DNA of 64,000 bases from NCBI RefSeq assembly GCF_054482595.1, contig NZ_CM137008.1, one strand, 5' to 3'. Below are positions 22,664 through 53,951 of this stretch, one piece after another (positions within the stretch are counted from its first letter, which is position 1; each line of letters opens with the position of its first letter). The position numbers and the translations under genes were made by a program. Under the pieces are notes generated by a model. The model was not told the origin of the DNA and ran no database searches. It worked only from the letters and a program-made list of their open reading frames with translations.

Positions 22664-23729
22664 TACAGCACTCCTTTCGACGAGGGCAGGGTATCGCCTT
22701 CCACGCGGATGGCCTGGCGCAGGGTGCGACCAAAAGCTTTGAACAGGCTCTCTACACGGTGATGATCGTTTTTACCTTTGGTTTTCAGGTGCAACGTCAC
22801 GCCCATGGTGTAAGAGAGCGAACGGAAGAAGTGCTCGATCATTTCAGTGCTGAGATCGCCCACGCGCTGGTAGGTAAATTCAGCTTTATATTCCAGGTGC
22901 GGGCGACCAGAGATATCCAGTGCGCAGCGGGCAAGGCATTCGTCCATCGGCAGCACAAAACCAAAGCGGCAAATACCGCGTTTGTCGCCAAGAGCAATTT
23001 TTAACGCTTCGCCCAGCGCCAGGCCGGTATCTTCGACGGTGTGGTGATCGTCGATATAGAGGTCGCCTTTGACGTTGATTTCCATCCGGAAACCGCCGTG
23101 GGTGGCGATCTGATCCAGCATGTGATCAAAGAAGCCAACGCCGGTGTTAATCTTGCTGCCACCTTCGCGATCCAGCCACACCTGGACGTCAATTTGCGTC
23201 TCTTTGGTGTTGCGCACCACATGGGCGTAACGGTCTCGTTTAGTGAGCTGCTCGCCAATCATTGGCCAGTTCAGGGTTTCGCGGTCATAGCGTAAACCAT
23301 TAATGCCCATGTTTTCCGCCAGTTGAATGTCGGTCGCGCGATCGCCAATCACATAACTGTTGGCACGGTCCATCGCTTGCTCAGCCAGATAACGCTCTAC
23401 CAGTTTTACTTTCGGCTTACGGCAGTCGCACTCATCGGCGGGCAGGTGCGGACAAATCAGCACTTCATCAAACTGCACGCCTTGCGAGGTGAAGATCTGC
23501 ATCATCAGGTTGTGCGGGCCATCAAAATCCGCCTGCGGGAAACTTTGTGTTCCCAGACCATCCTGATTAGTGATCATCACCAGCTTGTAGCCCGCTTTTT
23601 GCAGCTTCAGTAGCTCCGGGATCACGCCCGGTTCAAAGGCGAGTTTGTCAAAACGGTCCACCTGAAAATCACTCGGCGGTTCGCTAATCAGGGTTCCATC
23701 GCGATCGATAAAAAGATACTTCTGACTCA

Positions 23730-38482: not shown

Positions 38483-38650
38483 GCTTCAGCGCTGAGATTC
38501 CTGCTTGTTGCCGGAAAAGCAGGCACCTGCCGTCTGAACGGTATCGATCCGGAAGCGTATCTGCGCCATATTCTGAGCATACTGCCGGAATGGCCCTCCA
38601 ACCGTGTTGACGAACTCCTGCCATGGAACGTAGTTCTCACCAATAAATAA
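38483..38650 (+). mobile_element. IS66-family transposase C-terminal remnant
   Basis: Plus-strand frame encodes ...FLLVAGKAGTCRLNGIDPEAYLRHILSILPEWPSNRVDELLPWNVVLTNK*, the conserved C-terminus of IS66 TnpC with an internal deletion; no upstream transposase body. Confidence 0.5.
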
Positions 38651-39064
38651 GCGTCAATACGGTGCTCCGTTGACGCTTACTTTAATCCGTTTTCTGAGCT
38701 TAGATTTTTCTGTTCCTACCCAGACCGTGGATTTGGAATTCATTTTTTGTCAGGTCAATGCTAATCGTTAAAACGGCCATAACGCACCTCCACTGGAAGG
38801 TTTATCAGTAATATCCTACCGTTGCTTCATGGTCGGGGCGTCCATTCCATTATTATCGGTTTTCCTTTCTGTTTATAAATGAAAACGCCAGCTGTATTCA
38901 GGCTGGCGTCAGGGGAAATGAAGCCTGTTGAGTGAGATTCACCGGTTCTGGTGCAGAAGCTGCAGATGGCGCAGGGTAAGGACATCTTCTCTTGCCTGCT
39001 TAATACAGGACAACAGTGCTGTTTCTGTGGTTAATGGCACTATACCCTGCATCACTGCATTGTC

Positions 39065-39259
39065 TTACAGCAACTGGTGAGGGCTGGCATAAGTTGCCGG
39101 TGTTTCGGTAGAGTCACGGTCATCCACCACGCGGAGTGAATAACCGTTTTCAGCGGCCTTATTAATCAGTTCAGTGATATTAACACCATCAATGTCAACG
39201 ACAATGTGCCCCATATCCAGCGCCTGTACGTTAACGCTGTCGGCTTCCAGTGTCATCAT
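39065..39259 (-). CDS. yeeW: YeeW-like small protein
   Basis: 64 aa; start ATG overlaps the cbtA-frame stop (ATGA); last gene of the CP4-44-type backbone. Confidence 0.55.
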   Translation of the reverse strand: MMTLEADSVNVQALDMGHIVVDIDGVNITELINKAAENGYSLRVVDDRDSTETPATYASPHQLL

Positions 39260-39629
39260 TTCGCCTCCGGATACTTACCCAGGGTAATGTTATTTACCGT
39301 TCTGTAATTGTCGCGGGTCATCAGGCCGGTCGCCCTGCGAGCCCGGAGGATATCGATGCTGTTTATTAACTGAGAGCGGGTACAGGCGCTGAATCCCGGC
39401 TGGTCGGTAGCACCAGCGCGTATTTTTCCACGAGAAAGTTCACCGCATCACACAGTGAAATGCCTGCCTCAATATGCTGCTCAATCACACGTTCATCGGC
39501 AAAAGGTGTGTCATTCTGTGTGAGGCCATAGTGCTGGTCCAGCAGTCGGGACAGCAGTATCTGCCAGATTTCAACAGGAGACGGGCGAGAACTGGCCGCC
39601 TGCCCGGGTAATACAGGTAATGTTTTCAT
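39256..39629 (-). pseudogene. cbtA: CbtA (YeeV) cytoskeleton-binding type IV toxin, disrupted by a -1 frameshift
   Basis: N-terminus [36 protein letters not shown]...FLVEKYALV reads for 73 codons and stops at codon 88 (39366). The next frame encodes [50 protein letters not shown] with no stops, ending in the ATGA overlap with yeeW; consistent with a 1-bp deletion near 39409-39411. Confidence 0.75.
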
Positions 39630-39717
39630 ACTGAAGATTTTCCTGATATGCAGATATAAAAATGGAAAAGTGGCGTGGTGAAAACACCAGGCCGTAGCAG
39701 AAGGCTATTCTGGAGAG

Positions 39718-40086
39718 TTAATTTTTCATTTCGGGCGTCGGATAAACAGCCAGATAAACGTAACCACAACTGCTGAGGGTATCGGCTTTGCAGGTCAGCC
39801 CTTTTGCATACAGCGTGACGGTATGCTGATGGCGGGGATTCAGTTCACCGCTGGTGAGCATGAGTTCCAGTTGTTTCATCAGCAGCGGAAAGGCCTGGTC
39901 CAGGTGGTACGCATCTGCATCGCTGAACAGGCCTCTGATACCGGCGCGGTCGGCAAGGTAATGCAACCGGTTACCCTCCTGCACCAGACGTGCCCCGAAA
40001 CAGGGCGTCACGGTGCAGGGCAGCCCCCACCAGGGGCGGTCGTGATTGTCGTCGGGAAGTGTTGTCCCGGGGAGTGTGTCTGACAC
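39718..40086 (-). CDS. cbeA: CbeA (YeeU) type IV antitoxin
   Basis: 122 aa (MSDTLPGTTLPDDNHDRPWWGLPCTVTPCFGARLVQEGNRLHYLADRAG); immediately upstream of cbtA. Confidence 0.85.
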   Translation of the reverse strand: MSDTLPGTTLPDDNHDRPWWGLPCTVTPCFGARLVQEGNRLHYLADRAGIRGLFSDADAYHLDQAFPLLMKQLELMLTSGELNPRHQHTVTLYAKGLTCKADTLSSCGYVYLAVYPTPEMKN

Positions 40087-40159
40087 GATAAAATCCTTAC
40101 AGAAAATCGGCTAAGAATGGTCCGGTAGTGGCGATAATTCTGCTCATCAGAATTCCCAC

Positions 40160-40381
40160 TCAGTTCAGGGTGACGCTCATCAGCCGGACATACGGACCAA
40201 AACTGTCCTTACGGCGTTCAGCAAACACGGCCAGCACACCGGGAATATCCTGCACTTCACGACCGGTATACGCTTCAGCACTGCCGTGCCAGCGGTATTT
40301 ACCGGTACAGAACGGAAAAAGACGGGATGTCGGATGTTGTTGGTGAATACGCATGGCTTCACCACGGGTGATAATTTTCAT
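40160..40381 (-). CDS. yeeT: YeeT-like protein (DUF987)
   Basis: 73 aa (MKIITRGEAMRIHQQHPTSRLFPFCTGKYRWHG); conserved backbone gene. Confidence 0.8.
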   Translation of the reverse strand: MKIITRGEAMRIHQQHPTSRLFPFCTGKYRWHGSAEAYTGREVQDIPGVLAVFAERRKDSFGPYVRLMSVTLN

Positions 40382-40443
40382 AATGGGATACCTCTGAAGA
40401 CAGAAGATAAAAGTGAAAACAGGTGTGATGTGGTTGTGAAGGG

Positions 40444-40935
40444 TTAAAGCAGACCATGTTCGGCAAAGGAGAAAACCTGGTTGCCACCGACTATCAGATG
40501 GTCCGGCACCCGGATATCCACCAGGCCCAGTGCCTGTACCAGACGTTCGGTGATAAGCCGGTCTGCCTTACTGGGTGTGACTTCACCGGACGGGTGATTG
40601 TGTGCCAGTACCACGGCAGCGGCATTGTGGTACAGGGCGCGTTTAATCACTTCCCGGGGATGGACTTCCGTGCGGTTGATGGTGCCGGTGAAGAGGGTTT
40701 CACCGGCAATCAGCTGATTCTGGTTGTTCAGATACAGCACCCGGAATTCTTCACGCTCCAGTCCCGCCATGTTCAGAATCAGCCATTCCCGTGCTGCACG
40801 GGTGGAGGTGAAGGCCACGCCGGGTTCATGAAGATGGCGGTCCAGGGTTTTCAGGGCCCGTTGAATGAGGCTGCGCTCGCCGGGCGTCATCTCTCCGGGC
40901 AGAAAGGAAAGTTGTTGCATTGTGCTTCTCTCCAT
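40444..40935 (-). CDS. yeeS: RadC-like JAB-domain protein (YeeS family)
   Basis: JAMM-type HNHPSG motif (VVLAHNHPSGEVTPSKAD); start may be the internal MQQLSFLPGE. Confidence 0.8.
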   Translation of the reverse strand: MERSTMQQLSFLPGEMTPGERSLIQRALKTLDRHLHEPGVAFTSTRAAREWLILNMAGLEREEFRVLYLNNQNQLIAGETLFTGTINRTEVHPREVIKRALYHNAAAVVLAHNHPSGEVTPSKADRLITERLVQALGLVDIRVPDHLIVGGNQVFSFAEHGLL

Positions 40936-41415
40936 TCAGTCGATGATGCGCATAATGGCGCTGCATTCCGGATGCTGCAGGGCGTAATCCCGCAACCGGT
41001 AATAATGGACCGTCATGGCATAATTCTCCGTACGACAGGCATGATGACTGTACGTCATCAGACAGGCGGCAATACCGGCGGCTTCCGGGCTCATTTCTGC
41101 GCGGTTACCGTTCATGGCATTGAACAGTACCCATGTTTCGTCATCATCGTCATCCGGTTCGGGTGCCATAAATGCCCCGCCGTTGTTCAGGGTGTACAGA
41201 TTCCAGATACCACCGCAGTAGTCTTCGCACAGACGGTCCATCCAGCCGAAGACACGGGGCTCCAGGGTCACCCACTGTGGAATGAGGCCAAAATGCTGCG
41301 GCCAGAAGCTGATGCGCTGTTCATCAGGGACGAGGCTGGCAACCAACTGAGGCGGATTATTCTCTGGTGTTGTAGCTGAATAAATTGTGGGGGTATTCTG
41401 AGAAACGGTTTTCAT
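40936..41415 (-). CDS. Antirestriction protein (ArdB/KlcA-like; YfjX/YafX family)
   Basis: 159-aa acidic protein (DDDDDE patch) in the conserved slot upstream of yeeS in CP4-type islands. Confidence 0.65.
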   Translation of the reverse strand: MKTVSQNTPTIYSATTPENNPPQLVASLVPDEQRISFWPQHFGLIPQWVTLEPRVFGWMDRLCEDYCGGIWNLYTLNNGGAFMAPEPDDDDDETWVLFNAMNGNRAEMSPEAAGIAACLMTYSHHACRTENYAMTVHYYRLRDYALQHPECSAIMRIID

Positions 41416-41496
41416 GAGATAACTCCTTAAATAACAAATAAATGTGTGTTTTTCAGGAACGAAAGCTGAATGATTCCCTCACTCAGGGAAACGGCA

Positions 41497-42315
41497 TCAG
41501 CGCAGGCTCTCCAGCATCGTTTCTGCCATCACCCACAATGCGCGATTGAGCTTAATGTCGGTATCAATGCTGTGAATGGCCCGGGTATGGATACGTTTTC
41601 CTTTTGCACTGCGACCGGAAATCCCGCCTTTCAGCATATTCTCCTGGATGGTCTGATATGCGCTCCACAGGTCCTTACCGTAATCCTCCCGGCGTCGCGG
41701 CGTCAGAATGTCGGCGGTGGTGACGGGCTGATGTTCGTCACCATAACGGTAAGTCAGTGCCGCCTGTGCCAGCGCCTGGCGTGCCGGTGGCGGCAGGACC
41801 AGCGACTGCATGGCATCACGCTTCTCCTCTATCCGGTCAAACACGCCCACCACCTCGTAAGCCCCTTCGATAACTTTCTCCACTACATTTCCCCGGTGTG
41901 GAACACGCACTTCCCCCAGAGACTGGCCACAGACGCACCCGTTCTGGCAGACGAACCTGAAGTAACCCGGCAGCATCTGGTAGCTGGAGGTACCGTCATG
42001 AGAGTTGAGCAGAATAATTTCAGGGACATGTTCTCCGTTTATCTCTCCGGCCCGCCGCAGACGCAGCATGTGTTTTGTGTATCCCCGGCGGCCCGGGTCG
42101 CGCACACGGGTCTGGCAGGCGAAGAACGGCTGAAAGCCTTCCCGCTGCAGATTTTCCAGGACGGTAATGGTGGGAATGTACGCATACCGTTCACTGCGGG
42201 AGGTATGCCGGTCTTCCCCAAAAATACTGGGTACATAGTGCATCAGTTCTTCGTGTGTCAGCGGACGGTCACGGCGTATCTGGTTTACATGACCAAAACG
42301 ACTTGCTAATCGCAT
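41497..42315 (-). CDS. DUF932-family protein (YafZ/YfjQ-like island backbone protein)
   Basis: 272 aa; position and composition match the DUF932 gene of CP4-6/CP4-57-type islands; assigned from memory of the family. Confidence 0.55.
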   Translation of the reverse strand: MRLASRFGHVNQIRRDRPLTHEELMHYVPSIFGEDRHTSRSERYAYIPTITVLENLQREGFQPFFACQTRVRDPGRRGYTKHMLRLRRAGEINGEHVPEIILLNSHDGTSSYQMLPGYFRFVCQNGCVCGQSLGEVRVPHRGNVVEKVIEGAYEVVGVFDRIEEKRDAMQSLVLPPPARQALAQAALTYRYGDEHQPVTTADILTPRRREDYGKDLWSAYQTIQENMLKGGISGRSAKGKRIHTRAIHSIDTDIKLNRALWVMAETMLESLR

Positions 42316-42349
42316 GATTTGCTCCTTATGAATGAGTTAGCGGTATAAA

Positions 42350-42381
42350 TGAAAAAGCTGCGTCTCCCGGAGAAGACGCGG
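42350..42381 (-). terminator. Rho-independent terminator downstream of the cargo operon
   Basis: Minus strand gcgtcttctccgggagacgc followed by agcttttt; separates the cargo genes from the DUF932 backbone gene. Confidence 0.45.
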
Positions 42382-42525
42382 CCTGACGGGTGAAATGAAT
42401 AAGGTTTATTGTCTGAGAGGCCTTTCACTGGCGAGCCACGCATTAAGCGGCTTTCCGGTAACAATGGCTGGGGCTGTATTTACCTTTGATATTAATAATG
42501 TGCAGAGAAACGCATGGTTTACTCC

Positions 42526-42936
42526 TTAGATTTTAAGTTTGTCCTGGGCTACAACGACAGGTTTTCCGGATGTGTCGATGACTCCTACCGTCGGTACGCC
42601 ATTTTTGATTTCGAAGAACGGTTTGTTGCTACCTGAGCACAGTTGATTGTCCCCGTATTCAATCATTTGTGCTTTCCCGGTTTTCAGGTTAACTACCGAG
42701 ACAGTGTAGTCGTAGCACCAGGCACCACCACGTTCAAGCACGAAAACATAGCTGTTATCTTTATAGTTGAACTGATTCTTTGTCTGGCAATTCATACCGT
42801 CAATCTCAGTACAGGAAAACGCTTCTGTAGTATTAACGTATTTGATGTTATTTGGCAGTTTTACTTGTTTCGCAGTAGCGAAGACAGAGAACAGAATAGT
42901 TACAGCAACGAGTAAAGTTTTGATAAAAGTTTTCAT
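42526..42936 (-). CDS. Small exported protein with signal peptide, unknown function
   Basis: 136 aa; N-terminal signal peptide (MKTFIKTLLVAVTILFSVFATA), 5 Cys, AT-rich codon usage unlike the flanking genes. Confidence 0.5.
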   Translation of the reverse strand: MKTFIKTLLVAVTILFSVFATAKQVKLPNNIKYVNTTEAFSCTEIDGMNCQTKNQFNYKDNSYVFVLERGGAWCYDYTVSVVNLKTGKAQMIEYGDNQLCSGSNKPFFEIKNGVPTVGVIDTSGKPVVVAQDKLKI

Positions 42937-42951
42937 GATAGACTCCTTAAA

Positions 42952-43440
42952 TTAGTTAACCGCAGCTACGTAGTTTTTCACCAGATACGCGAATTCATGC
43001 ACGCCAATTTCACCGAACCAAACCAGGTAGGCCGGGTCATCTAAACCAAAGTAACGGTAGCCAACAACTTCATGGGTTTTTGGGTTATAGAGTGTTACGA
43101 TAAAGTCCCAGCCGCAGGTATTGGCTTTGCAACCGTCGCCCTGGAGCCAGACTGTACCGTTAATGTTTACTGGCGTGATACCTCCACCAGGGCCATCCAT
43201 ATAGCCGCCTTTACCGAACATGCCGCTCAGTCCGACCGGTTTTAATGCTTTGTCGATAGCGGCTTTGTAGGTAGCGTCACCTTCGTACAACTCGTACGTT
43301 GATGGACACGCTCCAGGTTGTTCAGCCCAGGCTTCCGGGTTACAACTAAGTGCTTGTTTTACGGTAGCCGCTTCTGCGTTAAAGTTAAAGCCCGTGAACA
43401 GAACCGCCAGAAATAACATAAGGGTATGTAAACGTTTCAT
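42952..43440 (-). CDS. Exported protein, possible Ivy-family (inhibitor of vertebrate lysozyme-like) protein
   Basis: Start set at MKRLHTLMLFLAVLFTGFNFNAEA (signal peptide). Motif GCKANTCGWDFIVTLY resembles the Ivy CKPHDCG loop but lacks the His. The same frame stays open upstream to 43743 with a second signal-like segment from 43635. Confidence 0.4.
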   Translation of the reverse strand: MKRLHTLMLFLAVLFTGFNFNAEAATVKQALSCNPEAWAEQPGACPSTYELYEGDATYKAAIDKALKPVGLSGMFGKGGYMDGPGGGITPVNINGTVWLQGDGCKANTCGWDFIVTLYNPKTHEVVGYRYFGLDDPAYLVWFGEIGVHEFAYLVKNYVAAVN

Positions 43441-43770
43441 TGTAAATATTCTTCCGTTGTAAATGGCGCTGGAAAATTTCTCATCAGTGAAACCTTCCGG
43501 AAGTTTCCCCCCCTTGTATGATGTATATCGCCAGTATTTTATTTCATCCCGGCTGTAATTTTTATATTCCCCGGCACGTGCAATAACGCTGACCAGAGAT
43601 ATAAGGCTCATTAATAACTTTACAGGTAATTTCATAATTAAATTTCCAGTGAGTGAATTGACAGGTGAGGGGTAAAACTTTCTCTCAGGTAATATATATC
43701 TGAAAATATTTTCAATAACACCAGACAGGAAAAACACCACCACAGGCGGTGGCGTTTCTTTGGGGCGTCT

Positions 43771-44841
43771 TTATTTAATCCGGGCCATCGCGTTTCTCAG
43801 TGCCAAATCTGCCTCTTCCGTTATATCCAGGCTTTTCTGCAATACCGCCTCTGACCGGGTCAGTGCCTGACGTGCTGCCAGCGGTTTCCGGATATGCTCC
43901 ATCGCCAGCATCGTGTCTTCATAGCCCTGCTGACGCCAGGCGTCGGTATGTGCCGATGTAAAACTGAGCAGACCGCCGCTGTTGCCACCATCACCTGCAT
44001 ATTTCAGCCTTTTCCGGGGACGGATCTCAAGGATTGTGGTGTCCGGAAAAGCCTGGCGATCCCATAAAGAACCGTCACTCAGATGCGTCACAATCACCAT
44101 ATTGCATCCGGCATCGACCAGAGGCGTCACAGGGGTATTTCCCTGCATATTTCGCCATCCTCCCATACCACCATCACCGAACATTGTCCCCTGAACCTCA
44201 CGGGGACGGAACAGCAGGGGCAGCGCGGCTGACGCAAGCAGAGCCTCTTTCTGCTGTCCGCGGGGCAGGCTCTGGATATGCTGAAAAACGGCGTTTTTCG
44301 TGGTTCCGACACCCAGTTCAGCACGAATGCAGTCAATAATATCCTGCATGCCCCCTTCTGTGGGGTACAGCGACACATACAGCGGTAGCCCGTCTGCCAG
44401 AGCATCAGTATCAAGATAATGATCCATCAGCGCTGTCAGGGGCTCATCTGACAACAACGGCTGAGCCATCAGATTGTCAAACCCGTTGATTGTCGATATA
44501 TGGCGAAGAAGCGTCGTAAGCAGTGCTCCTGCACGTCCGGGGATCTGGCAGAGGTTCATTGCCTGGAACAATTTTTTCAGCAATGAAAAGTAAACCAATC
44601 TGTTTACCGACAGCACCTGATTATTCCCCAGATGATCCCAGAGCGCCTCCAGGCGTACGGCAGCTTCTGACAGATCGGGAGAGGCCGCGATAATGGCACC
44701 ATTGAATGCGCCAATGCTGGCCCCTGAAACCATGCTGATCTGTGTACCACACTCTGCCAGTGCCTTAACCACTCCCGCCTGATAAGCGCCCACCGCCCCG
44801 CCACCGGACAGCACCAGCCCCGTTTTCATTTCTGTACTCAT
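43771..44841 (-). CDS. Patatin-like phospholipase
   Basis: 356 aa; Gly-rich oxyanion loop LVLSGGGAVGAYQAG, nucleophile elbow VSGASIGAF (GxSxG), catalytic Asp in FGDGGM (DGG); no signal peptide; start ATG overlaps the upstream stop (ATGA). Confidence 0.8.
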   Translation of the reverse strand: MSTEMKTGLVLSGGGAVGAYQAGVVKALAECGTQISMVSGASIGAFNGAIIAASPDLSEAAVRLEALWDHLGNNQVLSVNRLVYFSLLKKLFQAMNLCQIPGRAGALLTTLLRHISTINGFDNLMAQPLLSDEPLTALMDHYLDTDALADGLPLYVSLYPTEGGMQDIIDCIRAELGVGTTKNAVFQHIQSLPRGQQKEALLASAALPLLFRPREVQGTMFGDGGMGGWRNMQGNTPVTPLVDAGCNMVIVTHLSDGSLWDRQAFPDTTILEIRPRKRLKYAGDGGNSGGLLSFTSAHTDAWRQQGYEDTMLAMEHIRKPLAARQALTRSEAVLQKSLDITEEADLALRNAMARIK

Positions 44842-45743
44842 GCAGCCCCCTTCTGAAATATTTCATCGACCATACTTTCAGAGAGGCGTTCTGCAGAGCA
44901 GAGGCGAGGCATGCGAACCGGTAAGTGTTCTGCAGCCTGCGTGGTTGACCAGATCACCGGATGCTGCTCTTCACTGCACCAGTCTCCCAGCCAGTTAATC
45001 GCGTCATGCCACTCGTTATCTGCCTGCTCCCGGCCCTGACCACCAAGCCAGTCCAGAGTGTTCAGACGCACGGTTGCACTACCGCCACTCTCCTGTGCCA
45101 TCTGCGTTAATGCTTTATGTCTGAGAATATCCAGTAGCTGGTTAACCTGGCCTGTTTCGCCCTGACGTATCACATCACCAAACGCGCCCCAGCGAAGCTC
45201 TTCAAGTGCCACATAACAACGTCCGGCAGGGGAAAATGACGCATATCGCCCGGCGCTCCACCATGAGAATATCTGCTCAAGATGTAACTGCGCCCGCTGA
45301 ACCTGGTCAACACGGTGGAGTTTTTCTTCAAGATGATTCAGTTTATGGTGAACCTGATCGGCCAGGGTGAGTAACTGCTCCCGCGTATCTGCGGAATAAT
45401 GCGCCAGCCTGGCTGTATCACTGACCAGTGAACTGACCCTGTCGTTTACCCGGGTAATCGCGTAGTTTGTGGTGGCAAGTGACGTTGTCATCTCCGTCAG
45501 CCAGCGCAGGGACGCCTCAACGCCCTGTGCAAGCGACGCATTGATGGCATTCTGCCGTGCAGCGCCTTCGCCGGTCAGCCCCTCTTTTAAACGCCGGAAG
45601 AACGTGCGCTCTCCGGCCGTGCGGATATGCTCCTGTGCAACATCGATTCCGTTTGCGAAATCAACCACAAATTTTTCAGGAAGACAGGTGAGTACCTGAC
45701 ATACCCGGTTATCAGCAATTTGTTGAATAAATGGTGAAGTCAC
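44838..45743 (-). CDS. Helical/coiled-coil protein of unknown function, translationally coupled partner of the dynamin-like GTPase
   Basis: 301 aa, no nucleotide-binding motif; ATGA overlaps at both ends (45740-45743 and 44838-44841). Confidence 0.6.
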   Translation of the reverse strand: MTSPFIQQIADNRVCQVLTCLPEKFVVDFANGIDVAQEHIRTAGERTFFRRLKEGLTGEGAARQNAINASLAQGVEASLRWLTEMTTSLATTNYAITRVNDRVSSLVSDTARLAHYSADTREQLLTLADQVHHKLNHLEEKLHRVDQVQRAQLHLEQIFSWWSAGRYASFSPAGRCYVALEELRWGAFGDVIRQGETGQVNQLLDILRHKALTQMAQESGGSATVRLNTLDWLGGQGREQADNEWHDAINWLGDWCSEEQHPVIWSTTQAAEHLPVRMPRLCSAERLSESMVDEIFQKGAA

Positions 45744-48136
45744 AGCATTGTCTCCAGCTCTTCCCTCAGCGCCTTACTGTCAGTAATGAGCTCAGGAACC
45801 CTTTCATTTAATGCCTGAAGTCGCCCGGTAAGTCGTTCCTGCGCCTGCTGATCGCGTTTATGATCCTCAGAGCTCTGAATCAGCGTGTTACGCAGTTGTT
45901 CAACTTTCTCCCTGAATGCGCAGAAAAAGGCATCGATTTCCTGGCGGACGGGCTGGTTAATATCCTGCTCAATGGATGCCTGCAGCTCCCCGAAATATGC
46001 CCGGGTCAGTGACATAACTTCCTCTCTGACCTTGTTGATATTGATCACGCTGCGACTCACATCCTCGTCATAGTTTTCCCAGCCCAGGTCACTGGTGCCA
46101 AACCATCGACAAACGGTTCCCCATACGCCACTCTGCCGACGGCGACGGGTGACGGTCTCCGTTCTTTCCTCCATAAGCGCACTCAGATTTATTTTTACCG
46201 CGAGCCGGGTCTGTAACTGGCTGACTGCCGGAAAACTGATTTTTACGGTAAAGCCCTCATCCTCCAGGCGGGCATTGATGCGACCGGCAATGTTTTCTGT
46301 GGCGTACAGGGCCGTGCCACGAAAACCTGTTTCAATCCCGCTGACGATTTTCTCCAGCTCAGGCCGGAACTGTGCTTCAGCCTCACGGTGCAGGCTGGTC
46401 ACGGTCGATTCGATTTGCGTCATCAGTTCAAGGGCTTCCCTGCGATCACTGAATTTTATTTCGGGGCTGTCCGGGGCAAAATCTCGTTTCCTGTAATCCT
46501 CCCGGCCCTGGTTGTTGATACCGGACCATTGAGAAATTTTCCCCCATAATCCGGACTGAGACCTTCGTTGTTCTGCGTCTTCTTCCTCCAGCATTTGCTG
46601 TTCTTTGCGTTTACCGCTTCTGAAATAGTCATTCAGCTCCTCTTCCAGTGAGGTGCAGACCCCCGTCAGTAATTCCCGGGTTTTAGTATCGATCTCCTCC
46701 ATGGCCATTCTGACATCAGTGGTCATCTGCTCCTGACAGTCCGCGATTTCCCGGATATCCGCAAGCAGGCTGGTGATATGCGACTGCAGTGACTGAATGC
46801 TTTGCTGTAGCCCCTGATGGCGTAACAACAGGTATTCACTGATATTTTCTGCATTCTGCATCAGTTTTGCGGCGGCAGAGTCAACCGCCAGTGCCGCAGC
46901 TCTGGAATGTGAGCTCTGTATGACTTCCGTTATCAGTTGATCGATAAGTGAGCCTTCCCACAGGTCTGTCGCCCCTTCAGTTGCCAGTTCACTGTCTTTA
47001 CAGACGTATTCTTTTTTCATGCAACCGAAGGCACCTCTGATAAAATCATCGACCCAGGCTTCATCAACAGGAAGGGTTCCGTTTTTCCGTAACTCATGAA
47101 GCGCACGGTTAGCCAGGTATGCCTGGCGTGAGGATCCGGGATAAACGCGGGAGGCGGGCAGCACATCGCTGTTCAGCATTGCCGGAACTTTCTGGCGTAC
47201 GGCATCTGCCCCATCGCCATTGCGGTCTTTCTCATCAAATTTATTGACCAGTACAAACAGGCGGCCGGCTGATACGTCAGCAATGGCATTAAGCTCTTTA
47301 CGGACGTCTTCATCCGCTTTTGAGTTCATCTGGGTGTAATCCATCACAGCCAGAACCGCAGAGGCTTTCTGCAGTTGATCCCGCATCATCACTTCCATCT
47401 GCGGTTGTCCGGCCTCATTAGGGCCGGGGGTATCCAGCAGTGTGAGTGTTCCCTGGCATGCATCCATCCCCACCAGATGGCTGAATTCCACGTCGATCAC
47501 CGGCAGTTTCTGCACTTCTGCGTATTCATCAAAAGGAAATTCAGTCCCCATTGCCGCAGCAAGACGAACCAGATCGTTTAACGATGCCAGTCCGGTAAAG
47601 ATTTCCTCCTCCCCGTGGTATTCATTTTTGAGCCAGCCATCATCCGTCAGAATATCCAGCAGTTCGCGGGTATCCCCGGTTTGCTGCAGGGTCTGTGCGA
47701 CCTGCTGTCCTGCCGGGGTGGCGAGTTTTTCCTGCAGTGTGATTAATAAATTGCGGACAGGCTGAATATGTTCCAGATGGAGAACCGGCTCAGTTTTTCC
47801 GGGAACGTGGCGGATGAGCGTCGGTACAGAGGTCATGGGGCGGTTACGGTTAGGCAGAATTTCCTGCCCCACAATGGCATTGATGGTGGTTGATTTGCCT
47901 GCTTTCATCGTGCCGACAACAGCCAGCACCATCTCCCTGCGGGCGGTTTTGATTTGTTCGCCCTCCAGCTCCTCAATTCTTTTCAGTGCTTTCTGTTTAT
48001 CAAAAAGCAGTCTGTTTTCGTTCTTACTGTCAGATAACACATCTGGCTCCTCAACCATTTGCCGGAGCAGATTAATGTTCAGTTGCAAAAGTCGGTCGGC
48101 TTCATCACAAAGCAGGGCGATGTTCTTTTCGTGCAT
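45740..48136 (-). CDS. Dynamin-like large GTPase (bacterial dynamin-like protein family)
   Basis: 798 aa; G1 P-loop VVGTMKAGKSTTINAI, G3 LLDTPGPNE, G4 VLVNKFDEK, then about 500 aa of helical/coiled-coil sequence; AGGAAGG Shine-Dalgarno 7 nt upstream of the ATG. Confidence 0.8.
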   Translation of the reverse strand: MHEKNIALLCDEADRLLQLNINLLRQMVEEPDVLSDSKNENRLLFDKQKALKRIEELEGEQIKTARREMVLAVVGTMKAGKSTTINAIVGQEILPNRNRPMTSVPTLIRHVPGKTEPVLHLEHIQPVRNLLITLQEKLATPAGQQVAQTLQQTGDTRELLDILTDDGWLKNEYHGEEEIFTGLASLNDLVRLAAAMGTEFPFDEYAEVQKLPVIDVEFSHLVGMDACQGTLTLLDTPGPNEAGQPQMEVMMRDQLQKASAVLAVMDYTQMNSKADEDVRKELNAIADVSAGRLFVLVNKFDEKDRNGDGADAVRQKVPAMLNSDVLPASRVYPGSSRQAYLANRALHELRKNGTLPVDEAWVDDFIRGAFGCMKKEYVCKDSELATEGATDLWEGSLIDQLITEVIQSSHSRAAALAVDSAAAKLMQNAENISEYLLLRHQGLQQSIQSLQSHITSLLADIREIADCQEQMTTDVRMAMEEIDTKTRELLTGVCTSLEEELNDYFRSGKRKEQQMLEEEDAEQRRSQSGLWGKISQWSGINNQGREDYRKRDFAPDSPEIKFSDRREALELMTQIESTVTSLHREAEAQFRPELEKIVSGIETGFRGTALYATENIAGRINARLEDEGFTVKISFPAVSQLQTRLAVKINLSALMEERTETVTRRRRQSGVWGTVCRWFGTSDLGWENYDEDVSRSVININKVREEVMSLTRAYFGELQASIEQDINQPVRQEIDAFFCAFREKVEQLRNTLIQSSEDHKRDQQAQERLTGRLQALNERVPELITDSKALREELETML

Positions 48137-48193
48137 TATTTAACCTTCCTAAGACGCATTTTCATGACAACCACGGAGGAGGTCATTCACTAC

Positions 48194-48236
48194 AAACGAT
48201 CGTTTATAACGATCGATATGATAGTAACGATCGATG
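48194..48236. promoter_or_regulatory. Cluster of three GATC-containing AACGATCG boxes upstream of the dynamin operon (candidate Dam/OxyR phase-variation switch)
   Basis: aaacgatcgttt-ataacgatcgat-atgatagtaacgatcgatg; GATC at 48198, 48211 and 48229, 60-100 bp upstream of the dynamin start codon, in the slot corresponding to the yeeP-flu intergenic region. Confidence 0.4.
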
Positions 48237-48353
48237 TATTCTATTAACTTGAGAAACACAACGCAAGGGGACAACCCGGGTATGGCTGCGTTTGCATAGT
48301 GTTTTCATGGAGTTAAAAATCTGTAACAACAGCCTGGTACATCACCACCGGGT

Positions 48354-49226
48354 TCAGAAGAAAATCCAGTTCCATACCGCGCGGGCAACAGAGACCACCG
48401 AGTCACGGACGGCGCGCAGAACCGTGCGTGCAACAGAGGCAATGCAGACGCTCTCCGCCGTGTCAAATATCCGGTCCACCGCACCGGTAAACTGTTCACG
48501 GGCCTGAGACCGGACAGACTCCGTGCGCAGCTCGTCCTGCAGGCGGGTCATCAGGGGACTGGCGGCATGGTCGGGAAGTGCTGTCATGAGCGCACTGACC
48601 AGCGTATCCAGTTCCCAGCCGGTGCGGGCCGATACGGCAACAACCCGATGTACGGGCCGGAACAGACGGAATACCGCCTCCGTTTTTTCGCGAATGTTCT
48701 GTGCCTGTGCGGGAGAAGGCTGAATACCGGCCATATCCCATTCATGGCAGGGCTCCGTTTTATCGGCCTGCATCACCACAAACAGTACCCGCTGATGTCC
48801 CCGGTGCAGGATGTGTCGCCAGAAATACTCATCCACAGACAGGGCACGGTCATCGGCTTTAATCAGCCACAGTACCAGGTCCAGTTCGGGCAGAATGTCA
48901 CGGTACAGGGCTTCATACTCTGCATCCCTGTCCCGGCTCTCGCCCACCCCGGGCAGGTCAGTGATAACCATGCTGTGACCATGGCCATTCAGACGGAAGC
49001 GCTGCACTTCCCGGGTGCCGGCGTGAACATCACTGACCGGGGTGACCTCCCCCTGAAACAGCGCATTACAGAGTGAGGATTTACCGGCCCCGCTTTTCCC
49101 CATAATGCCAATCACGGGTTCGTGACTGGTGAGTTTGCGCAGATGTTCCAGGATGTGACGGGAAAGTGAGTAAGGCAGGGAGGAGAGCGGTTTTTCGATT
49201 GCCTCAATGGCATCAGACGGATTCAT
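48354..49226 (-). CDS. yeeP: YeeP/YfjP/YkfA-family small GTPase (island backbone)
   Basis: P-loop GIMGKSGAGKSSLCNAL, G3 ITDLPGVGE, G4 VMQADKTE; start set at MNPSDAIEAIEK (GGGAA Shine-Dalgarno), about 290 aa. Confidence 0.7.
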   Translation of the reverse strand: MNPSDAIEAIEKPLSSLPYSLSRHILEHLRKLTSHEPVIGIMGKSGAGKSSLCNALFQGEVTPVSDVHAGTREVQRFRLNGHGHSMVITDLPGVGESRDRDAEYEALYRDILPELDLVLWLIKADDRALSVDEYFWRHILHRGHQRVLFVVMQADKTEPCHEWDMAGIQPSPAQAQNIREKTEAVFRLFRPVHRVVAVSARTGWELDTLVSALMTALPDHAASPLMTRLQDELRTESVRSQAREQFTGAVDRIFDTAESVCIASVARTVLRAVRDSVVSVARAVWNWIFF

Positions 49227-49309
49227 ACATGTATTCCCGGTGAAAAAAGACAAAACCCCGCGCACCGGAAAGGTGGCGGGGGATTCACGGAAATAATATC
49301 TGTCTGAAA

Positions 49310-50473
49310 TTATCTGGAATCGATTTGGCTGTTCTGCCTGGTTGCCACCAAATCATGGTACGCCTGCTCAATCATTTCATTCAGCAGTTTTTTTGGGAGG
49401 ACACCACGACTTCGGGCAATACTTTCAAGCTGTTTGTGGATTTTTCCGGACAGTTTCAGAGGGACGGAACCATCAGCACGTTCATCACGCCTTTTTTGTT
49501 GCTCCCGGGCACTTTTCAGCTCATCAAGAAGAATCGCTTTATGCTGAATCCTGGGGGCCTGGAAGGAGACCTGCGTAAACTTCGCTCTGTTCCGTCTGGG
49601 ATTACTTTCCAGTAAAAACTGTACCTGTTGCTCATTCCAGCCCTCCCAGTTATCAAACGTGGCGCAGGCAAACCAGTATTTCTGCTCCGGGGTAAGGGGA
49701 TTCAGCGGGGTTCCCACACACCGGACCTGCATGGCGTTCCATAACCAGTCACACTGTTCACTGTCCCTGCTGTCCACCCACGAAAAGGGGGAGGGGTAAT
49801 CATTGTTTATGCTGGCCCATTCAGAGAATACTGAGTTGATAATCGTCCTCGTAGCCTCTGGTCCGGATTTCAGCAGGTAACTGGAGCAGAACCATATAAT
49901 TTCACGGTAGATTTTATCCGGATGCACGGTGCGCATCGGCTTTTCTCTGGGACCGGCAATCTTCGGTTGCGATGGAAACCCCGTGGCAAACCGCAGATGT
50001 TCCGGGGGCATTCCTGAACGTTTTTCAGGAATGGGTGTGAGTCCTGCGTTTCTGGTCTTTTCCGCTTGTCCGGTATTGCCTCCGGCCGGAGTGTTGTCGG
50101 GAGTATCTTCCGGAGGCGAGGTGTTTTCATTAGTTGGGGGAACAACAGCAGAACTGTCCATCTCCGGAATGGGTTGAGGGGCATAATCACTGTGGTAGCC
50201 AGGGGAAAGCGTTAAGTCCCGAAGGGTGACATCAGGTTCCGGGCAGTGAGTGCCACCGGGAGTGAACGGGAGTTGTTGCTTTTGGGAGAAAAATGTATTG
50301 TGAATGCGGGTATACAGCTGGAACAGAAAAAAATAAGATGCCCGTGGTTCTTTTTTTAACCACTGTGTATATTCCTCTATGGCACCGAGCTGTTGTTTGT
50401 GCCGTTTTACAGCATCGATATACGGACAGCTGGTGCAGATATCATCCAGTTCCTTTCCCACAATACACCTCAC
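49310..50473 (-). CDS. Hypothetical protein (Pro/Thr-rich linker; basic C-terminal helical region)
   Basis: 387-aa ORF with no recognisable family; no canonical ATG near the 5' end (the listed start is GTG), so the start is uncertain. Confidence 0.35.
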   Translation of the reverse strand: MRCIVGKELDDICTSCPYIDAVKRHKQQLGAIEEYTQWLKKEPRASYFFLFQLYTRIHNTFFSQKQQLPFTPGGTHCPEPDVTLRDLTLSPGYHSDYAPQPIPEMDSSAVVPPTNENTSPPEDTPDNTPAGGNTGQAEKTRNAGLTPIPEKRSGMPPEHLRFATGFPSQPKIAGPREKPMRTVHPDKIYREIIWFCSSYLLKSGPEATRTIINSVFSEWASINNDYPSPFSWVDSRDSEQCDWLWNAMQVRCVGTPLNPLTPEQKYWFACATFDNWEGWNEQQVQFLLESNPRRNRAKFTQVSFQAPRIQHKAILLDELKSAREQQKRRDERADGSVPLKLSGKIHKQLESIARSRGVLPKKLLNEMIEQAYHDLVATRQNSQIDSR

Positions 50474-51993
50474 CTGCTTTTCTCACATTTGCAGATTTTA
50501 AAAAAGCAAACAAAAACCTCCGTACATGATGTACAGAACAATCTACCAGGTAGTGGCGTCAGAAAACCTCCGGGCCGCCTGCACTTTCCGGAATGCGCCG
50601 GTTATGAAAAACCGGAAATTCAGTCTCTGTTGTAAGATGTACCCTCTGATACTACGTTTTCTCTGTGTATTTAACTCACTGTATTTATTGTCTTTTTAAG
50701 CTTGACTAATATTCTCCGGTCATAGTGTGCCGGATACACATCCCGTAAACTTCTCATTTTTATATAAAAATACCTGCACTCTCTTCAGCGCATCTGTCTC
50801 CTTTAAGTAAAAAATGTTTTTACGTATTGCTGTAAATTCATTTTAAATCAGTATATTACCTTGATATTGCTGTCTCCTGGTTTGATGCGTAATCGTTCTG
50901 CCTTTCTGGATGATTCTGGTGCTTCCGGGTGCATTCTCCTCTGCACATGCAACAGTTCGTCATCGCCACGCTCCCAAAAAGCATATAAAAACGAATCGAA
51001 TTTGATATTTTTTTCAATCGTTTTTCATAGGAATTTCGTAGGGTATTCTCCGCTATAACCTCCATATTTGCTGTCTTTTTCTTCATAAATCGTATGCAAT
51101 GTAGCCTGTCTGTCAAGACCTCTTCTCTGCTGTTGAGGAGACGATCTCATTTTTGGTCTTTTCCGGGAGAGAGGCTGTCAGATGAGCGAGCCGGATATAC
51201 TGTCAGAGGTACACCCCGTAGCAGACCTGTGCTCCCATTTCCGCGATCCGGAACCAACAACACCCTACGGTTAATACCATTTGAAGCGTCAGGTACTGCA
51301 GGAAGTTCCCCCCTGCGCGGACATCGGTTCCTGCCGACATCTCACAATACGGCCAGACTGTCATGCAGTAACACCCGCATGCGGTCTGCGGTTTTAAGCG
51401 CACTCTCCCGTTTTCAGTGCATCGATAATGCGTCATAGTAAGTCTGGGGGAAGTTACGGAATGCCTGTTAAGTGGTGCCGTGGGTGGAGACAGCTTACTT
51501 TTCTACAGCAACTGCAGTCATTCAGGATGATCAGGAGATATTCTGTCAATGTCACGATCCTGCCATTTTCGTACCCGCTAAGATACTTCCGTTACTGATG
51601 CTGTCCGCTTTTCACCATTTCATCCTCACTGACAGGCGTTGCGTTTTGGGTCATCACCACAGCTTTACGTTTCTCTTTTAACCGGTAACGCTCTCCTTTG
51701 ATATTCAGCGTGGTTGAGTGATGCAGCAGTCAATCCAGGAGCGCTGTTGTCCGGCAACCACCATATCAACTTCTTCCCGGGTGTGGCGGAGAGGTGGTAT
51801 CCTGGCTGAGTTTCGAAGCGAACCGTTCTTTTTGACGGGCGCATTTTACGTCCGGGCTGAATGTAGTAACGCGGCATGGAACGTCGGCCCGTATACCATT
51901 GCCTTAATCTCCGCAAAGATAACCTCGTCATTCCGGACATTCTCTGCCAGGCATATGTCGATGTAATCCATAAACGATTTCAGCTTACCCCTT

Positions 51994-53951
<1,958 letters not shown>

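Follow-up and report, generated by a model that had tools for sequence, protein, structure and literature searches.

A likely agn43-type Dam/OxyR switch upstream of a dynamin-like/RdcB-family/patatin operon in Escherichia coli

The 217-bp spacer that separates a yeeP-family GTPase gene from a dynamin-like gene is almost certainly a true homologue of the phase-variation switch of agn43 (flu), and we think it probable that this spacer drives heritable ON/OFF expression of the dynamin-like/RdcB-family/patatin operon that follows. The spacer was found in a 64,000-nucleotide (nt) stretch of contig NZ_CM137008.1, which is called the window below. In its sequence the spacer has every feature by which an agn43-type switch is recognized: homology, three spaced GATCs, a single OxyR tetramer match, an operator over the transcription start, and a location in an island of the yeeP-GTPase/CP4-44 type. 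What marks the agn43 (flu/cah) locus proper is absent, for there is no Ag43-family autotransporter downstream and no IS102/IsrC-type leader. Because the gene downstream encodes a CrfC-paralogous dynamin-like GTPase and there is no IS102 match, we regard the spacer as a relative of the switch and not as an agn43 locus.

The spacer, its elements, and its neighbors

E. coli WP4-S18-ESBL-08 matches the window with 99.7% identity over 24 kb. In that genome the island adjoins tmaR-yeeA-sbmC, and the chromosomal locus is therefore the K-12 CP4-44 locus. K-12 has flanks in common with the window (yeeP; yeeS to yeeA) but carries flu-yeeR in place of the window's dynamin operon and four other genes. The GTPase gene that precedes the spacer is 96% identical to the K-12 yeeP pseudogene and gave Era/Der-type GTPase matches in a profile search; its RefSeq homologue, annotated at the identical locus in another genome, is a 290-amino-acid (aa) "GTPase family protein." The product also had weak PADLOC matches to the dynamin-like defense proteins LeoBC (E = 9e-9) and LeoA (E = 2e-4), which would give the island two dynamin-related GTPases, one on either side of the switch. 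An IS100 element (IS21 family, with istA and istB) lies at 52084-53885, ~3 kb upstream of the GTPase gene, and is also present in WP4-S18-ESBL-08.

The dynamin-like gene appears in RefSeq as "dynamin family protein." The protein matched the NCBIfam CrfC model with an E value of 1e-166, but at 556 bits versus a cutoff of 1146, and we class the gene as a paralogue of CrfC/YjdA (RdcA). The hairpin with a T-run behind the patatin gene is the probable end of the core operon; nevertheless, two more genes downstream of the patatin gene were coregulated with the operon in E. coli MP1, which is discussed below. We do not claim the operon as a member of a known defense system, because the operon proteins had only marginal PADLOC matches (LeoBC or phospholipase effectors) and none of the three had a match in PHROGs. 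The coordinates of all features are given in Table 1.

Table 1. Features of the switch region and operon in the window
Feature	Position	Strand	Basis and remarks
yeeP-family GTPase gene	48354..49265	-	ORF list, GTG start; stop codon adjoins the switch spacer
Intergenic spacer	48137-48353		217 bp; between the GTPase gene and the dynamin-like gene, both on the minus strand
-35 hexamer TTGCGT	48261..48266	-	Alignments; identical to the O157 cah promoter
17-bp promoter spacer	48244-48260	-	
-10 hexamer TAGAAT	48238..48243	-	Identical in K-12 flu, O157 cah, and MP1 (alignments)
Predicted OxyR tetramer operator ATCGATCGTTACTATCATATCGATCGTTATAAACGAT	48199..48235	-	Consensus scan; 37 bp, all three GATCs within
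GATC-I (Dam site)	48229..48232		At the predicted transcription start; aligned with agn43 GATC-I
GATC-II	48211..48214		18 bp from GATC-I (K-12 agn43, 19 bp)
GATC-III	48198..48201		13 bp from GATC-II, same in agn43
Leader, GATC-III to dynamin ATG	48137..48197	-	61 nt; Shine-Dalgarno AGGAAGG at ~48145-48151
Dynamin-like GTPase gene (798 aa)	45740..48136	-	First gene under the putative switch; ATG at 48134-48136
RdcB-family gene (301 aa)	44838..45743	-	Start overlaps the dynamin stop by 4 nt; ORF list and RefSeq annotation
Patatin-like phospholipase gene (356 aa)	43771..44841	-	Start overlaps the RdcB-family stop by 4 nt
Terminator-like hairpin and T-run	43735..43751	-	20 nt past the patatin stop

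The original prediction placed three GATC boxes in front of the dynamin start codon, and this proved correct. The sites begin at 48198, 48211, and 48229, so that the cluster spans 35 bp, and each is contained in a copy of AACGATCG (plus strand, at 48195, 48208, and 48226); there are no other plus-strand copies of this 8-mer in the window. Because the operon is read from the minus strand, the GATCs are 61 to 96 bp upstream of the dynamin ATG. The ATAG segment that had been pointed out beside them is also real; it occupies 48219-48222 on the plus strand and, read on the coding strand, gives the CTAT of an OxyR half-site.

If the cluster were merely a product of chance or base composition, it would have no regulatory meaning. 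Triple GATCs within 31 bp are in fact expected about once per 64 kb (~1.2), and 2 are present in the window. The second, at 23107-23127, has three GATCs in 21 bp and lies inside a gene (a 356-aa open reading frame [ORF]); since it has neither the CGATCG context nor an OxyR match, we consider it an ordinary chance cluster. For the pattern CGATC-N10-12-TATCGATCGTT-N5-CGATCG, on the other hand, the window has one match, and 100 dinucleotide-preserving shuffles yielded none; unlike the bare GATC triplet, the structured pattern is nonrandom. Furthermore, the spacer contains the best OxyR match in the window, it is homologous to a characterized switch, and the module has been kept across species although its flanks are unrelated. 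We give the chance explanation next to no credence, as the alignments described below effectively refute it.

The cluster is situated in a GATC-poor island, there being no other GATC between 47575 and 51143. Two long GATC-free stretches, 48233-51142 (2.9 kb) and 38550-44022 (5.5 kb), flank the operon inside the island, and consequently the triple cluster stands out locally. GATC is reported to be underrepresented in mobile elements, and the GATC-free stretches around the operon are consistent with this.

The -35 hexamer fits the consensus at only 3 of 6 positions, which explains why a generic promoter scan did not call the switch promoter. What such scans did call, an overlapping and weaker-looking promoter pair and the palindromic operator as a terminator-like element, we regard as artifacts of dyad symmetry. 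The annotated 5' end of isrC in K-12 is the G of GATC-I, 5 nt past TAGAAT; the match to Rfam IS102 extends 2 nt farther upstream. The geometry in the window is equal; transcription is accordingly predicted to start at ~48232, which is the G of GATC-I, and the OxyR site would extend from about -3 to +34. The OxyR consensus used was ATAGnTnnnAnCTAT-N7-ATAGnTnnnAnCTAT, which has 20 specified positions. The predicted operator matches 16 of these and is the only site with at least 15 matches among the ~128,000 positions on both strands of the window; K-12 agn43 in the same register matches 14 of the 20. With the start placed by alignment, an operator lying over the start of a TTGCGT-17-TAGAAT promoter has the geometry of a repressor site, as in K-12.

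Only the first ~20 nt of the leader resemble the cah/agn43 leader. A search for IS102/IsrC gave no match in the window at an E value of ≤1 (the K-12 leader, as a control, scored 252.6 bits). We do not claim a leader hairpin in which CCUCCUCC would pair with the Shine-Dalgarno sequence AGGAAGG, since its z score was -1.5 and 15 of 200 shuffles folded as well.

The alignment with the K-12 yeeP-flu region that had been proposed earlier revealed homology across the promoter and all three GATC boxes. A block common to the spacer, the K-12 yeeP-flu region, and the O157:H7 GTPase-cah region consists of the -35 element, the 17-bp spacer, the -10 context TAATAGAAT (identical in all), and the three GATC boxes in register; within the aligned boxes, TATCGATCGTT and CGATCG are identical. 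The part shared with agn43 amounts to only ~75 bp, from the -35 element to ~20 nt past GATC-III. In a distant blastn search, the core (query positions 43-103, which are window positions 48188-48248) retrieved switches of the Ag43/Cah type at ~81% identity. The original proposal, that an agn43-type switch stands here before a different cargo, is thus supported at the sequence level: the neighbor is a yeeP-family GTPase gene, the locus is that of CP4-44, and the cargo is the dynamin-like/RdcB-family/patatin operon.

Conservation, natural variants, and distribution

The entire spacer shows high conservation among genomes of the dynamin-type lineage. Of these genomes, 74% have an identical 44-bp GATC core, and 50% have an identical 44-bp segment upstream; because the core is only moderately above its flank, conservation within the lineage says little, and as we read the alignments it is the comparison across lineages that carries the argument for constraint. 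Across lineages with unrelated flanks (flu, cah, dynamin, Citrobacter braakii, C. amalonaticus, and C. werkmanii), the invariant columns were concentrated at 48195-48265, and they included -35 and -10 positions that were outside the requirements of the search pattern.

The sampled variants of the switch were mostly base changes outside the GATCs, and loss of a GATC was rare. An allele in which GATC-III has become AATC was found in 7 genomes, all of one mouse-associated lineage (strain 8178, L012:4055-4098). In strain NCTC9699 (L137:2883-3081), an 18-bp deletion takes out GATC-I together with the first OxyR half-site. We consider the alleles of NCTC9699 and of the mouse-associated lineage candidates for naturally locked switches.

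The spacer was present at ≥90% identity in 1985 of 5426 complete E. coli genomes (~36%), and in 1970 of these 1985 it was contiguous with the first 600 bp of the dynamin gene. Carriers of the spacer-dynamin fusion include CFT073, IHE3034, ST131, O104:H4, O145, O121, O111, O55:H7, and the type strain. The operon overall was found in ~2470 of the 5426 genomes, ~1970 of them with the direct fusion. In ~500 more genomes, including O157:H7, the dynamin gene has a different upstream region, and the order is GTPase, switch, cah, dynamin, RdcB-family, patatin. In PAI-CFT073-aspV (NC_004431.1; L004:8218-10615), the dynamin gene was annotated as frameshifted in the original record, and the switch upstream of it is intact.

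In O157:H7 strain F8492 (L003:1807-10364), the dynamin/RdcB-family/patatin operon is directly behind cah and its cah-type switch. Neither a consensus promoter nor a terminator was found in the 110-bp gap between cah and the dynamin gene in O157:H7, so that the operon might, at a stretch, be under the cah-type switch there too.

We surveyed 132 copies of the switch, which comprised the window, reference loci, 4 species representatives, and 120 metagenome contigs among the matches listed. In 125 of the 132 copies, counting metagenome contigs from among the matches listed, a downstream ORF could be called: 63 were Cah-like, 37 Flu-like, and 20 dynamin, 3 were Citrobacter-specific small proteins, and 2 were artifacts. 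Among the matches listed, every surveyed copy with a 37-bp core and a callable ORF had the dynamin gene downstream, with its ATG 60 nt past the GATC-III box, and an OxyR match of 15 to 16; the copies with a 38-bp core had Ag43/Cah downstream, except for three Citrobacter copies, and OxyR matches of 12 to 14. Since the correspondence between core length and cargo is strict, the dynamin-type switch is an established sublineage and no recent accident in this strain. Judged by these cores, it is a distinct and widespread sublineage in which GATC-I is 1 bp closer to GATC-II and the OxyR match is better.

Outside E. coli, C. werkmanii NBRC 105721 (L007:4705-7212) has a diverged three-GATC module with the -35 sequence TTGTCA, followed by genes for two small membrane or exported proteins. 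On the same strand, ~1.2 kb downstream, PADLOC identified a CBASS pair made up of a 2TM/SLATT effector (E = 6e-72) and a cyclase (E = 1e-115). We considered whether this CBASS is under the switch, but it is probably a separate unit, given that the two small exported-protein genes and an AT-rich gap intervene. In C. braakii and C. amalonaticus, the GTPase-switch module is accompanied by other small unknown proteins.

Predicted switching and the MP1 transcriptome

At agn43, OxyR occupies the operator when this is unmethylated, thereby repressing transcription and keeping Dam from the GATCs, whereas methylation abolishes binding and so allows transcription; both states are inherited, with switching at ~10^-3 to 10^-2 per generation (PMC2909390, PMC4872104, PMC3764049, PMC13337833). 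The switch is locked OFF in a dam mutant and locked ON in an oxyR mutant or when Dam is in excess (PMC2909390, PMC4872104, PMC3764049, PMC13337833). All of the cis elements required are present in the spacer in the same arrangement, and an agn43-like switch acting on the operon is therefore its most likely function. From these elements we infer OxyR binding, sensitivity of that binding to methylation, and bistable, heritable expression at the spacer.

The proposed mechanism is as follows. A sigma-70 promoter (TTGCGT, 17 bp, TAGAAT) would be overlaid by one OxyR tetramer operator with three Dam sites, which would cover the start and the first ~35 transcribed bases. In the OFF state the GATCs would be unmethylated, and OxyR would bind, block transcription of the dynamin-like, RdcB-family, and patatin genes, and shield the GATCs from Dam, a condition that the daughter cells would inherit. 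In the ON state Dam would have methylated the sites first, after replication; OxyR would then be excluded and the operon transcribed, and this state would likewise be inherited. Rare flips between OFF and ON would result in a mixed population. Since the spacer is a close relative of the agn43 switch, it is probable that only some cells of a clonal population express the operon.

The differences from agn43 could also mean that the promoter is homologous but monostable, that is, either OxyR repressed or constitutive, locked OFF or always ON, with unimodal expression. The OxyR match is above that of agn43 (16/20 versus 14/20) and GATC-I is shifted by 1 bp, and in Salmonella, phase variation of opvAB is lost when OxyR half-sites are improved by single bases (PMC4856963). 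The shorter distance between GATC-I and GATC-II combined with the better OxyR match could thus lock the locus, most likely OFF. However, a locked promoter would not need its three GATCs, and these are kept in register in nearly all of the ~1980 genomes; moreover, strain MP1 exhibits both a strongly expressed and a near-silent state in one genetic background. We consider a monostable promoter unlikely, and an agn43-like switch remains our preferred interpretation.

The MP1 data come from a 2026 transcriptome sequencing (RNA-seq) study in which a wild-type Kapi1 lysogen of E. coli MP1 was compared to a cured derivative, with two colonies per strain (PMC12922286). The strongest difference between the two strain lineages was a five-gene cluster; it was seen in both media and was independent of the lysis-lysogeny decision (PMC12922286). 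The authors concluded that the difference was due to Kapi1 lysogeny and remarked that regulation of such dynamins had not been described previously (PMC12922286). We located this cluster (NZ_CP139039.1, 4061483-4067571; L006:2084-8172). Its five members are the dynamin, RdcB-family, and patatin genes and the two genes that follow, and it starts right after a 217-bp spacer which, by alignment, bears the same three-GATC switch. The GTPase gene upstream of the spacer is excluded from the differential cluster.

These results bear on whether the operon has another main input, either a regulator encoded by a prophage or the island or read-through from the GTPase gene, with the GATC/OxyR module minor or vestigial. 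Such an input would agree with the authors' attribution of the difference to Kapi1 lysogeny, and since no terminator was found between the GTPase gene and the spacer, read-through may add a component that is independent of the switch. Yet the upstream GTPase gene did not change with the cluster, the MP1 difference does not follow the induction state of the prophage, and the promoter elements are conserved across switch lineages. In addition, the hyxRAB operon also differs in the MP1 comparison (PMC12922286). The regulator gene of this operon, hyxR, is under the control of hyxS, an invertible element that is phase variable (PMC6083910), and the hyxRAB difference therefore points to clonal phase states. 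We hold it improbable that another input is the main one. For agn43 it is a documented pitfall that the phase state of a clone gives clone-dependent results (PMC3764049). An inherited difference in phase state may fit the MP1 data at least as well as prophage-dependent regulation, although the argument is circumstantial, and the published induction of the cluster by lysogeny may be a clonal phase-state difference. An agn43-like switch would thus offer an alternative explanation for the finding that this cluster was the one most strongly induced by the prophage.

The literature searched, which lay largely outside subscription journals, contained no account of the operon as phase variable nor of an agn43-type switch before a cargo other than an autotransporter. 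To our knowledge, the surface adhesins of the Ag43/Cah family are essentially the only case of Dam/OxyR phase variation known in E. coli. If the switch works, a widespread three-gene cytoplasmic operon would be expressed only in a subpopulation. Any search for the function of the operon would be affected, since knockouts, RNA-seq, and phage assays started from single colonies would be clone dependent, as documented for agn43 (PMC3764049). The interest of the case is in its unusual cytoplasmic and possibly toxic cargo and in its presence in ~36% of complete E. coli genomes. The dynamin-like/RdcB/patatin system may be a phage-defense or membrane-remodeling module.

We can also suggest, tentatively and with less than even confidence, a broader interpretation. 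The agn43-type module might be a portable epigenetic cassette of ~75 bp at the cargo entry point of yeeP-GTPase islands, by which an intracellular, potentially self-damaging dynamin-like/RdcB/patatin-phospholipase system would be placed under stochastic, heritable bet-hedging in about a third of E. coli strains (CFT073, ST131, O104:H4, and the type strain among them). If so, Dam/OxyR phase variation would for the first time be seen to act on a cytoplasmic system and not on a surface structure, and part of the published "regulation" of such operons would be clonal phase state. Should the switch work as predicted, the spacer would also provide a natural second operator, different in spacing and affinity, with which to study how competition between Dam and OxyR sets the switching bias.

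Comparison with known switches

The spacer and the switch of K-12 agn43 (flu) belong to the same island family and chromosomal locus, and both have a yeeP-family GTPase gene as neighbor, the -10 sequence TAGAAT, a 17-bp promoter spacer, a single OxyR operator across the start, and three GATCs with identical spacing between GATC-II and GATC-III. They differ in cargo, which in K-12 is an autotransporter adhesin and here a cytoplasmic dynamin-like/RdcB-family/patatin operon. They also differ in the distance from GATC-I to GATC-II (19 bp in K-12 versus 18 bp here), in the OxyR match (14/20 versus 16/20), in the -35 sequence (TTGTCC versus TTGCGT), and in the leader (an IS102/IsrC leader of ~200 nt versus one of 61 nt).

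By sequence the closest relative is the cah region of O157:H7, in which the -35 sequence TTGCGT, the -10 sequence, and CGATCGTTT(G/A)TAGTG past GATC-III are the same. There, however, the switch is followed by cah and a long leader, whereas here it is fused straight to the dynamin gene; the dynamin alleles of O157:H7 and the window differ by ~6%. We considered an origin of the fusion by simple deletion of cah, but local alignments of the 61-nt leader with the O157 cah leader and with the cah-dynamin spacer were no better than those of shuffles.

The Salmonella gtr and opvAB systems are similar in that Dam and OxyR act together, the GATCs are in or next to OxyR half-sites, and the methylation patterns are heritable (PMC2909390, PMC4856963). 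Unlike the spacer, they have three or four half-sites upstream of the promoter, at which alternative positions of OxyR activate or repress, and they have no sequence homology to it; here, as in agn43, there is one predicted tetramer site on the start point, at which OxyR would act as a repressor only. The Dam/Lrp switches of the pap family are alike in that epigenetic ON and OFF states are inherited through protection of GATCs, but their regulator is Lrp/PapI, their two GATC boxes are 102 bp apart, and they have no homology to the spacer (PMC2909390).
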